Shown here piece after piece: positions 1,181 to 5,132 of a stretch of DNA of 5,132 nucleotides. Source of the DNA: a virus (Duplodnaviria; Heunggongvirae; Uroviricota; Caudoviricetes). Under the pieces are notes generated by a model, which did not search any database, was not told the DNA's origin, and saw nothing but the letters and a program-made list of their open reading frames with translations. Within the stretch, counting starts at the first letter, position 1, and every line of letters starts with the position of its first letter. A program made the position numbers and the translations under genes. The stretch is from the IMG/VR virus record IMGVR_UViG_2671180435_000009; one strand, given 5' to 3'.

Positions 1181-1927
1181 TTACTTCACAACTCCCGGAA
1201 AGCTGACATTTGAACGCCAGCTATCCCAGTTAAACGTCACCCACCGACAACCGTTCATGGTCATGCGGTCCATAATCCTCTCACCAAGAAGCGTGCTCAT
1301 TGCGGCATGATTCAGGTTTGTTAACATCCCGACACTGCACAGTGATGCTGTCCGGCGATCAATTATCTGGTGCAATACCACCTGCTCGTTTTTCGTCTCC
1401 CGCTGAATGCCTATTTCATCCAGGACCAGCAAATCAACCCCGCAAAGCTCCTGTAAAAATTTTTCACCGGATTTGCCGTTGTCGTAGCTGTCATGCAACA
1501 CGCTCATGACATCAGACTCGGTGACGATAATCACGCTGCGCCCCTTCGCCATCAGCCGGTTACCCATCGCCGCTGCAAGGTGATTTTTCCCGGTGCCGGT
1601 TTTACCGCTGAACACAAAATTCGTGCACCCGGTCATCAGTTCGTCAGCTATGGATTTGGCCTGGCTCAGCGCGTATTTTTGCCCGTCGTTCTGCACCTGA
1701 TAATTCGCAAACGAGCATTTGCTGTGCAGAGGCTGGATGCCCGAACGATTCAGGATTTTTTCCACCCGCAACTGGCGATTCTGGCGGTTAATCTCCTCGC
1801 TGCGTTTTCGTCCTTCAGCAAGTTGCCATTCCCGCCACTCCTCCACCGTCCGGTACGGTGGAACCGCCCCCTGTGGTGCAAGTCTGTGAATACGTTCAAG
1901 AACCCCGGCTGCCGCAATGTTTTTCAT
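1181..1927 (-). CDS. dnaC: DnaC-family AAA+ helicase loader (prophage-type DnaC paralog)
   Basis: Complete 248-aa ORF with ATG at 1927 and TAA at 1183-1181, with a G-rich SD (GGGGGTG) upstream. Walker A FSGKTGTGKNHLAAA and Walker B VDLLVLDEIG are present. Blocks NRSGIQPLHSKCSFANYQV, GMLTNLN, LLGERIMDRM and FNWDSWRS match E. coli DnaC as I remember it (NRSGIRPLHQNCSFENYRV, GMLTNSN, LLGERVMDRM, FNWDSYRS), and the N-terminus MKNI... matches MKNV.... This is from memory, not a database search. Confidence 0.93.
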   Translation of the reverse strand: MKNIAAAGVLERIHRLAPQGAVPPYRTVEEWREWQLAEGRKRSEEINRQNRQLRVEKILNRSGIQPLHSKCSFANYQVQNDGQKYALSQAKSIADELMTGCTNFVFSGKTGTGKNHLAAAMGNRLMAKGRSVIIVTESDVMSVLHDSYDNGKSGEKFLQELCGVDLLVLDEIGIQRETKNEQVVLHQIIDRRTASLCSVGMLTNLNHAAMSTLLGERIMDRMTMNGCRWVTFNWDSWRSNVSFPGVVK

Positions 1928-1933
1928 GCCACA

Positions 1934-3057
1934 TCACCCCCTGAATCCCGGCGGAATTTCGGTATCCGGTTCAGAAATATGATTCACACAACGCTGGTTG
2001 TTCGTGCCGCTTACCGGGAGCAACCAGGGGTTTTCAAAATTCCGGTCCGGCCCAAAAAACGNNNNNNNNNNNNNNNNNNNNNNNNNNNNNNNNNNNNNNN
2101 NNNNNNNNNNNNNNNNNNNNNNNNNNNNNNNNNNNNNNNNNNNNNNNNNNNNNNNNNNNNNNNNNNNNNNNNNNNNNNNNNNNNNNNNNNNNNNNNNNNN
2201 NNNNNNNNNNNNNNNNNNNNNNNNNNNNNNNNNNNNNNNNNNNNNNNNNNNNNNNNNNNNNNNNNNNNNNNNNNNNNNNNNNNNNNNNNNNNNNNNNNNN
2301 NNNNNNNNNNNNNNNNNNNNNNNNNNNNNNNNNNNNNNNNNNNNNNNNNNNNNNNNNNNNNNNNNNNNNNNNNNNNNNNNNNNNNNNNNNNNNNNNNNNN
2401 AGGCTGCTGCAGTTGGAGTGATTGCTCCGGCCTTGCGGTCATCACCTGCTGCACAGCGCCCGAATCGGCTTTCAGCGCATACGCTGAATCGGCTTCCGGT
2501 GTCGAGCCTGCTGGCTGACCAGGATTGACGGTCTGAACATCCCCTGCCTGGTTCGTGGCGTTTTTTACGCCATGGACCATAGTGTTTTGATCTTCTTTAT
2601 CTGTATCTTTATCTGTATCTGTCGTGACTCGTCGTGACATGTGCGTGACATTTCGTGACGCGCCGTGACAATCGCCATTTTGTTCCCGCTTTCTTTCCCT
2701 CTCTCGCTGCGCCCTCTTGCGCTCTGCAGGAGATTTTGCGGTTTGCGAAATATTGCCGTTGTCCTCTTTAAGCACCTGGCGTTTTTCCCATCCAGTGATT
2801 AAATCACCATCAAGTACCCGCCCCTGCATCGTCTGCAAAATTGAATCAATTACCTCTTCTGTCACGTCGAGCGCACTTGCCAAATCTTCTGTCGTGACAT
2901 CAATGTGACCTCGCGTGACATTTCGTGACGCGCTCACCAGGAGGTGGATATACACTGCCATCACTGTTGCAATTGGCTGCCCTGACACCCTGGCAATTGT
3001 TCGCCACTTAGGGTCATTTGGCATGTCATGCCATAATCTGAGCCAGGCGTTAGCCAT
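1934..3057 (-). CDS. phage replisome organizer (O-like N-terminal domain) with DnaT-like C-terminal tail; reading frame changes inside the masked block 2062-2400
   Basis: ATG at 3057-3055 follows an SD (AAGAGGTG, 3068-3061). The ORF track starts at GTG 3063. The N-terminus MANAWLRLWHDMPNDPKWRTIARVSGQ... fits the pattern I associate with phage replisome-organizer N-terminal domains. Downstream of the mask, a different frame reads ...NQRCVNHISEPDTEIPPGFRG and stops at TGA 1936-1934, 6 nt before the dnaC-like ATG. This closely matches the E. coli DnaT C-terminus as I recall it (...RDVNTVSEPDSQIPPGFRG). The ORF-track end at 2011 (tail RFLGRTGILKTPGCSR) is in the N-terminal frame and is probably spurious. 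One gene or two cannot be resolved because of the mask. Confidence 0.7.
2062..2400. other. masked or undetermined bases (339 N)
   Basis: Run of N; hides the junction between the organizer N-terminal frame and the DnaT-like tail frame. Confidence 1.
2596..2619. repeat. 2 x 12-bp perfect tandem repeat TTTATCTGTATC in an AT-rich tract
   Basis: Read directly: 2596-2607 and 2608-2619 are identical. On the coding strand they encode DTDK DTDK. The tract lies immediately beside the iteron array. Confidence 0.8.
2621..2670. repeat. iteron array: 5 direct CGTGAC copies at 10-11 bp spacing; putative phage origin inside the organizer gene
   Basis: CGTGAC at 2623-2628, 2633-2638, 2644-2649, 2654-2659 and 2664-2669, all in the same orientation at roughly one helical turn, flanked by the AT-rich tract 2581-2620. 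The layout resembles lambda ori, which lies within gene O. Confidence 0.6.
2861..2933. repeat. second iteron cluster: 1 inverted copy (GTCACG 2861-2866) plus 4 direct copies
   Basis: CGTGAC or GTGAC at 2893-2898, 2905-2909, 2914-2919 and 2924-2929, with 10-11 bp spacing. A 21-bp exact copy of part of the first array (GCGTGACATTTCGTGACGCGC) occurs at 2643-2663 and 2913-2933. Confidence 0.5.
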
Positions 3058-3408: not shown

Positions 3409-4586
3409 NNNNNNNNNNNNNNNNNNNNNNNNNNNNNNNNNNNNNNNNNNNNNNNNNNNNNNNNNNNNNNNNNNNNNNNNNNNNNNNNNNNNNNNNNNNN
3501 NNNNNNNNNNNNNNNNNNNNNNNNNNNNNNNNNNNNNNNNNNNNNNNNNNNNNNNNNNNNNNNNNNNNNNNNNNNNNNNNNNNNNNNNNNNNNNNNNNNN
3601 NNNNNNNNNNNNNNNNNNNNNNNNNNNNNNNNNNNNNNNNNNNNNNNNNNNNNNNNNNNNNNNNNNNNNNNNNNNNNNNNNNNNNNNNNNNNNNNNNNNN
3701 NNNNNNNNNNNNNNNNNNNNNNNNNNNNNNNNNNNNNNNNNNNNNNNNNNNNNNNNNNNNNNNNNNNNNNNNNNNNNNNNNNNNNNNNNNNNNNNNNNNN
3801 NNNNNNNNNNNNNNNNNNNNNNNNNNNNNNNNNNNNNNNNNNNNNNNNNNNNNNNNNNNNNNNNNNNNNNNNNNNNNNNNNNNNNNNNNNNNNNNNNNNN
3901 NNNNNNNNNNNNNNNNNNNNNNNNNNNNNNNNNNNNNNNNNNNNNNNNNNNNNNNNNNNNNNNNNNNNNNNNNNNNNNNNNNNNNNNNNNNNNNNNNNNN
4001 NNNNNNNNNNNNNNNNNNNNNNNNNNNNNNNNNNNNNNNNNNNNNNNNNNNNNNNNNNNNNNNNNNNNNNNNNNNNNNNNNNNNNNNNNNNNNNNNNNNN
4101 NNNNNNNNNNNNNNNNNNNNNNNNNNNNNNNNNNNNNNNNNNNNNNNNNNNNNNNNNNNNNNNNNNNNNNNNNNNNNNNNNNNNNNNNNNNNNNNNNNNN
4201 NNNNNNNNNNNNNNNNNNNNNNNNNNNNNNNNNNNNNNNNNNNNNNNNNNNNNNNNNNNNNNNNNNNNNNNNNNNNNNNNNNNNNNNNNNNNNNNNNNNN
4301 NNNNNNNNNNNNNNNNNNNNNNNNNNNNNNNNNNNNNNNNNNNNNNNNNNNNNNNNNNNNNNNNNNNNNNNNNNNNNNNNNNNNNNNNNNNNNNNNNNNN
4401 NNNNNNNNNNNNNNNNNNNNNNNNNNNNNNNNNNNNNNNNNNNNNNNNNNNNNNNNNNNNNNNNNNNNNNNNNNNNNNNNNNNNNNNNNNNNNNNNNNNN
4501 NNNNNNNNNNNNNNNNNNNNNNNNNNNNNNNNNNNNNNNNNNNNNNNNNNNNNNNNNNNNNNNNNNNNNNNNNNNNNNNNNNNNNN
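3409..4586. other. masked or undetermined bases (1178 N)
   Basis: Run of N; the largest hidden block, bordered by genes entering it from both sides. Confidence 1.
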
Positions 4587-4611
4587 GCCTAAATCAGAGG
4601 AGATATGTAAA

Positions 4612-5010
4612 ATGAGTACAGTCCTTTCCCCAATGGTTTCAGAATTTGAGACAGTTGAGCAAGAAAATAGTTACAANNNNNNNNNNNNNNNNNNNNNNNN
4701 NNNNNNNNNNNNNNNNNNNNNNNNNNNNNNNNNNNNNNNNNNNNNNNNNNNNNNNNNNNNNNNNNNNNNNNNNNNNNNNNNNNNNNNNNNNNNNNNNNNN
4801 NNNNNNNNNNNNNNNNNNNNNNNNNNNNNNNNNNNNNNNNNNNNNNNNNNNNNNNNNNNNNNNNNNNNNNNNNNNNNNNNNNNNNNNNNNNNNNNNNNNN
4901 NNNNNNNNNNNNNNNNNNNNNNNNNNNNNNNNNNNNNNNNNNNNNNNNNNNNNNNNNNNNNTACCTGTATCCTCCAAGCGAGCGAGTTCTTGGTCTTCGT
5001 GAAATTGTAA
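4612..5010 (+). CDS. hypothetical small protein (about 132 aa if continuous), middle masked, lower-GC region
   Basis: ATG at 4612 follows GAGGAG (4597-4602) with 9 nt spacing. The ATG overlaps a TGA (4613-4615) that would terminate an upstream plus-strand frame coming out of the mask. Visible N-terminus is MSTVLSPMVSEFETVEQENSY. The same coordinate frame is open beyond the mask and ends at TAA 5008-5010 (...TCILQASEFLVFVKL). Continuity is unverifiable. Confidence 0.3.
   Translation: MSTVLSPMVSEFETVEQENSYXXXXXXXXXXXXXXXXXXXXXXXXXXXXXXXXXXXXXXXXXXXXXXXXXXXXXXXXXXXXXXXXXXXXXXXXXXXXXXXXXXXXXXXXXXXXXXXXTCILQASEFLVFVKL
4677..4961. other. masked or undetermined bases (285 N)
   Basis: Run of N inside the putative 4612..5010 ORF. 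Confidence 1.
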
Positions 5011-5132
5011 CTCATCCTAACTACATCATCCTTTACCGAGTAACAGCATCAAGCATAGAAGTAGTAAATATTGTGCATTCTCGAAGACAGTATCCAGGCA
5101 AAAACAGTTAATTATTCCCGCCGACAGAACCA

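Follow-up and report, generated by a model that had tools for sequence, protein, structure and literature searches.

The question raised by this locus is whether a phage replication gene that appears to change its reading frame is broken, represents two genes, or is intact and merely displayed in a misleading way. The stretch of DNA analysed here (5,132 nt, hereafter called the window) belongs to a virus of the Caudoviricetes (IMG/VR record IMGVR_UViG_2671180435_000009), and parts of it are masked by runs of N. On the minus strand of the window, the visible N-terminal part of the gene extends from position 3057 to position 2401 as 219 open codons, which start with MANAWLRLWHDMPNDPKWRT and end with SLQLQQP at the edge of an N run of 339 positions (2062-2400). 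The visible C-terminal part, translated from 2059 to 1934 on the same strand, reads FFGPDRNFENPWLLPVSGTNNQRCVNHISEPDTEIPPGFRG and is followed by a stop codon, and stops are present in both other frames of this tail region. The entire gene (1934-3057, minus strand), annotated as 'phage replisome organizer', has an apparent length of 1,124 nt, which leaves a remainder of 2 upon division by 3.

The first-pass annotation, which was made from the masked letters alone, was right about these coordinates and about the arithmetic: in the window, the two ends of the gene indeed lie in different frames. It offered three readings, i.e. a genuine frameshift (pseudogene, sequencing error or recoding site) under an N block that replaces bases one-for-one, a separate organizer gene and DnaT-like gene that meet within the mask, or a mask that does not preserve length and covers a single intact frame. 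The comparison with unmasked relatives supports the last of these. What the window contains is a conventional prophage replication initiator gene of Shigella sonnei that is intact and had been annotated before.

Masked stretches and the underlying DNA

The window contains six unmasked segments (2,764 nt in total), and all of them are 100% identical to S. sonnei chromosomes, including CP000038.1, which we take to be that of strain Ss046, in agreement with the UniProt name Q3Z1T4_SHISS. The S. sonnei loci were found via an exact look-up of the protein encoded by the fully unmasked DnaC-like gene (1181-1927), and the identification is based on the exact identity of every unmasked base with many S. 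sonnei assemblies. In the loci L009-L011, L015 and L016, the six segments are present exactly and in the same order.

These loci also provide the real length of each masked stretch, and all five N runs deviate from it. The runs at 90-690 (601 positions for 631 nt of real DNA, a difference of -30) and at 791-795 (5 positions for 8 nt, -3) are too short, while the runs at 3409-4586 (1,178 positions for 1,012 nt, +166) and at 4677-4961 (285 positions for 270 nt, +15) are too long. The run within the organizer gene (2062-2400), which covers codons 220-313, likewise exceeds the DNA that it hides, with 339 positions for 280 nt (+59). When all five runs are corrected from the S. sonnei loci, the real length of the window is approximately 4,925 nt.

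The value of 280 nt was found in 16 out of 16 loci in which the 40 nt on either side of the mask are exactly those of the window; these loci were drawn from viral contigs and from the S. sonnei loci, and the exact 40-nt mask-edge probe is carried by 14 viral contigs. The probe had no match in the species-representative genome collection, and the exact allele is absent from the complete E. coli genomes in the collection, where the best relatives show 97-99% identity.

The assumption of a one-for-one replacement of bases by the N block, which would thereby reveal a real change of frame, is therefore false, because 280 nt and not 339 separate the mask edges in the S. sonnei loci. With 339 positions written for 280 bases, the length of the gene grows from 1,065 nt, which is a multiple of 3, to 1,124 nt, which is not (2 mod 3). 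As far as can be judged from sequence comparison, the apparent frame change is almost certainly a masking artefact, with the N run at 2062-2400 as its sole cause and with the gene in one intact frame. Since masks of arbitrary length throw their flanks out of frame in two out of three cases, a frame change across such a mask is expected at chance level. More generally, the N runs in this window do not preserve length, and arguments on frame continuity, spacing or phase across masks are thus unreliable and should either be discarded or be compared with unmasked relatives.

The rebuilt gene and its alleles

Joining the flanks of the window with the real 280 nt generates a gene of 1,065 nt, which consists of a single ORF of 354 amino acids plus stop codon, contains no internal stop and is identical to L016:2930-3994. 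This is the organizer gene of S. sonnei Ss046 (Q3Z1T4_SHISS; CP000038.1), from which the version in the window differs solely by the artificial length of the N run. The mask of the window thus does not preserve length and hides a single frame, which is the outcome that the first-pass annotation had itself named as evidence against its frameshift. An intact single ORF is present in 13 of the 13 loci in which both gene ends were located; it encodes 354 amino acids in 12 of them and 346 amino acids in the remaining one (L026).

A megablast search against complete E. coli genomes and phages detected the gene in thousands of records with 97-99% identity. The gene measures 1,065 nt in CFT073; E. coli O103 WL1467 and phage Tritos share a length of 1,071 nt, two STEC strains have versions of 1,107 and 1,119 nt, and OkiPb01711 has one of 1,047 nt. 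In every intact close allele inspected (E. coli and phage Tritos) the length is divisible by 3. In alignments of these alleles, the stretch that corresponds to the mask comprises 280 nt, or 256 nt in the allele with a 24-nt deletion. The length differences have two sources, namely the number of copies of a 12-nt repeat located outside of the mask and the 24-nt deletion between short GAAGCC repeats.

These alleles also bear on the possibility that the mask covers a real net insertion of 59 nt, or of another number that is not a multiple of 3, which would turn the gene into a frameshifted pseudogene. Truly frameshifted alleles of this gene do exist: in E. coli 95NR1 (NZ_CP021339.1, EC95NR1_RS13275), a T is lost at GAGGGGGTGCC, next to a run of G within the masked stretch, which results in a genuine -1 frameshift, and PGAP marks the gene as 'frameshifted'. 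Short direct repeats in the masked stretch, moreover, have given rise to the 24-nt deletion in another strain (locus L006). The 95NR1 gene is, however, the sole non-intact one among the close alleles inspected, and although it belongs to the same family, the site of its single-base loss is intact in the S. sonnei allele with the sequence of the window. Furthermore, all five N runs deviate from the real length, and they do so in both directions, yet the 2,764 unmasked bases are identical; five real indels positioned precisely beneath five masks are not credible. No allele with 59 additional nucleotides was observed among the matches listed, which comprise 60 of 2,507 E. coli records, 14 viral contigs and 8 S. 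sonnei loci. Natural length variation was also considered as a source of the additional 59 nt and was rejected, because the observed variants differ by multiples of 12 nt in either direction (the GATACAGATAAA repeat, outside of the mask), by -24 or by -1, and none of these equals 59. With the rebuilt gene being a single 1,065-nt ORF, a real frameshift, be it a pseudogene, a sequencing error or a recoding event, is rejected, and we regard a pseudogene that results from an insertion under the mask as highly improbable.

A programmed ribosomal frameshift or another recoding site under the mask is of negligible probability. The zero frame is open throughout, a change of frame is not required to produce the complete protein, and we found nothing that speaks in favour of it.

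The GAGGGGGTGCC site in the masked stretch (L016 around 3758-3781, L005, L009) is thus a variable one. In S. sonnei L009 (CP104423.1), a T>G exchange at GAGGGGGTGCC produces a run of seven G and replaces Val by Gly. The variation at this site may reflect homopolymer-associated mutation or sequencing error.

Identity of the encoded protein

The complete protein of 354 residues matches phrog_3729, a 'replication initiation protein' family, over its entire length (residues 1-354 against profile positions 1-356 of 356, E 3e-250). An identical protein sequence carries the name 'phage replisome organizer [Shigella sonnei]' (Q3Z1T4, Q3Z1T4_SHISS) and occurs on at least 1,000 contigs. Curated models for the N-terminal domain of replisome organizers cover the expected region with scores below their cutoffs: TIGR01714 (NCBIfam) was matched over profile positions 1-119 of 119 with E 0.015 and 15.4 bits versus a cutoff of 49.8, and PF09681 (Phage_rep_org_N) over positions 1-118 of 121 with E 0.12 and 12.8 bits versus a cutoff of 23.3. 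No Pfam match to the full organizer protein was obtained at E <= 0.01. The designation of the N-terminal part as an organizer N-terminus, which had been proposed from the masked sequence, is thus supported weakly by the curated models and strongly by the PHROG families and the source annotation.

The profile matches are also informative with respect to a possible two-gene arrangement, in which the mask would contain both the end of an organizer and the start of an independent DnaT-like gene. Apart from the apparent frame difference, nothing directly points to such an arrangement, but some PHROG families cover only one half of the protein, namely phrog_21423 (residues 1-149) and phrog_18526 (residues 198-354). 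The existence of such half-length families may be due to domain shuffling or to split gene calls elsewhere. In contrast, the real sequence contains no stop in codons 1-354, including the hidden codons 220-313, a single profile of 356 positions matches from end to end, one ORF is present in all 13 full-length loci, and the similarity to DnaT is confined to 25 residues. Two separate genes are therefore rejected in favour of one gene, and we consider their probability to be vanishingly small.

The DnaT-like C-terminus and the adjacent helicase loader gene

The single organizer protein carries a DnaT-like tail at its C-terminus (1937-2011, minus strand), which corresponds to residues 330-354 (SGTNNQRCVNHISEPDTEIPPGFRG). 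In a BLASTP comparison, this tail aligned with residues 155-179 of E. coli DnaT with 15 of 25 identical residues (60%, E 1e-07 for the pair); the E. coli DnaT sequence used for this comparison is identical to PDB chain 9zbt_D. Both proteins share the IPPGFRG end, and the motif SEPDxxIPPGFRG is present at the extreme C-terminus. The description of this part as a DnaT-like tail was accordingly correct, but it applies to the last 25 residues only. The NCBIfam model for DnaT (NF002770) was matched with 18.1 bits versus an equivalog cutoff of 201, and only profile positions 156-179 of 179 were aligned; the PDB entries 6aep, 2ru8 and 9zbt_D were likewise matched at their C-termini only. No similarity was detected to the N-terminal (oligomerisation) domain of DnaT or to its three-helix C-terminal domain, as judged from the NF002770 profile and from BLASTP, in which 25 residues were aligned. 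The organizer as a DnaT protein was consequently rejected, based on 18.1 bits versus 201 and on the 25 aligned residues.

Downstream of the organizer gene, a DnaC-like replicative helicase loader gene (1181-1927, minus strand) starts with an ATG that is located 6 nt past the organizer stop codon (junction GGGGGTGATGTGGCATG). Its product is homologous to E. coli DnaC over the full length and matches PDB 6qel_G over residues 2-242 with E 1.6e-73; it scores 499 bits against NF009043, which is above the cutoff, and also matches PF01695. In E. coli, the gene for DnaT lies directly upstream of dnaC, just as the organizer gene lies directly upstream of the gene for the DnaC homologue, and dnaT and dnaC are located in one operon (PMC13377028). 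The organizer tail together with the DnaC homologue 6 nt further on (1928-2011 plus 1181-1927) mirrors the dnaT-dnaC operon of the host, which suggests a common ancestry of this junction.

A more far-reaching proposal, which we consider possible but rather doubtful, is that the 25-residue tail and the DnaC-like gene constitute a portable module, that the 3' end of dnaT together with dnaC is derived from it or shares its ancestry, and that the tail does the same job during origin firing in the phage and during replication restart in the host. This shared function could be a contact to single-stranded DNA or a hand-off to the loader. A 2026 cryo-EM paper on the preprimosome contains no statement on DnaT residues 155-179 or on a role of the extreme tail. 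If such a module exists, its sole novelty would be that the tail is functionally equivalent in both settings, as the architecture is already known from the DopC/DopE proteins (PMC5509034).

Repeats within the coding sequence and a putative replication origin

The hexamer GTCACG occurs nine times in the window, versus 1.4 expected occurrences, and none of 200 shuffled sequences reached nine. Eight of these copies are located on the coding strand of the organizer gene, where they form two clusters with a spacing of 10-11 nt. The first iteron-like cluster (2891-2929, minus strand) comprises three GTCACG and one GTCACA, again 10-11 nt apart, and sits 260 nt upstream of the second cluster (2621-2669, minus strand; repeat family D1), which contains five GTCACG at the same spacing within the coding sequence.

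Directly after the second cluster, an AT-rich 12-nt tandem repeat (AGATACAGATAA; 2597-2620, minus strand; family D7) is present in two copies. The repeat, which is found as AGATACAGATAA or AGATAAAGATAC, encodes DKDT repeats; alleles from E. coli, Shigella and phages (L001-L030) contain between 1 and 6 copies of it, with the frame always being maintained. This variable copy number accounts for the gene lengths of 1,065, 1,071, 1,107 and 1,119 nt. Judged by sequence features, the two clusters in combination with the AT-rich repeat look like a prophage replication origin that is embedded in the initiator gene.

Proposed function and relation to known initiators

The locus contains a single intact gene that resides in a lambdoid prophage, or in the remnant of one, within the S. 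sonnei chromosome and encodes a 'replisome organizer'-type initiator of 354 amino acids. Its N-terminal domain would bind the GTCACG iterons within its own coding sequence, and the adjacent AT-rich 12-nt repeat would probably be where the DNA unwinds. The C-terminal part with its short DnaT-like tail is predicted to recruit the host helicase DnaB by way of the DnaC-like loader, whose gene begins 6 nt further on. The family assignment and the gene order point to a lambda-like arrangement, in which the initiator probably binds an intragenic origin and DnaB is recruited via the phage's own DnaC-type loader.

In phage lambda, ori-lambda is located inside the O gene, and the helicase-loader gene P follows next. 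The organizer gene resembles lambda O in two respects: its coding sequence contains iteron-like repeats and then an AT-rich stretch, and it is located downstream of genes in the cro and cII positions and directly upstream of a helicase-loader gene. Different from lambda O, the organizer matches no Pfam lambda-O model and its iterons are arranged in two clusters that are 260 nt apart. Its partner is also different: where lambda has P, the organizer is paired with a DnaC homologue of the AAA+ type.

A counterpart in architecture has been described with DopC/DopE, which combine an O-like N-terminus and a DnaT C-terminal motif with an IstB/DnaC-like partner gene (Brezellec et al. 2017, PMC5509034). 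The organizer and its DnaC-like partner show this same, already described architecture. DopC, however, was reported as a domesticated chromosomal gene without iterons (PMC5509034), whereas the organizer gene, which contains iteron-like repeats, belongs to a prophage or to what remains of one.

Gene neighbourhood

In the S. sonnei loci, the gene order comprises an HTH repressor, a small gene in the cro position, a YdaT-family gene, the organizer, the DnaC-like gene, and genes for DUF1627 and DUF977 proteins. In one S. sonnei assembly (VFAD01000001.1, L014 4748-5146), the DUF1627 and DUF977 genes are missing downstream of the DnaC-like gene. A gene pair for a PaaA2-like antitoxin and a ParE-family toxin adjoins the HTH repressor in the prophage immunity region (window 4587-5110, plus strand; L016 1057-1541), and a 1-nt deletion in the PaaA2/ParE stretch of S. 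sonnei L013 (CP029794.1) coincides with the lack of a called ParE gene. Past the prophage region and outside of the window, the loci L009-L016 contain an N6-methyltransferase/Eco57I-type gene and a BsuBI/PstI-type restriction endonuclease gene (6561-8747), and an IS1 transposase gene is located at the opposite edge of several S. sonnei loci.
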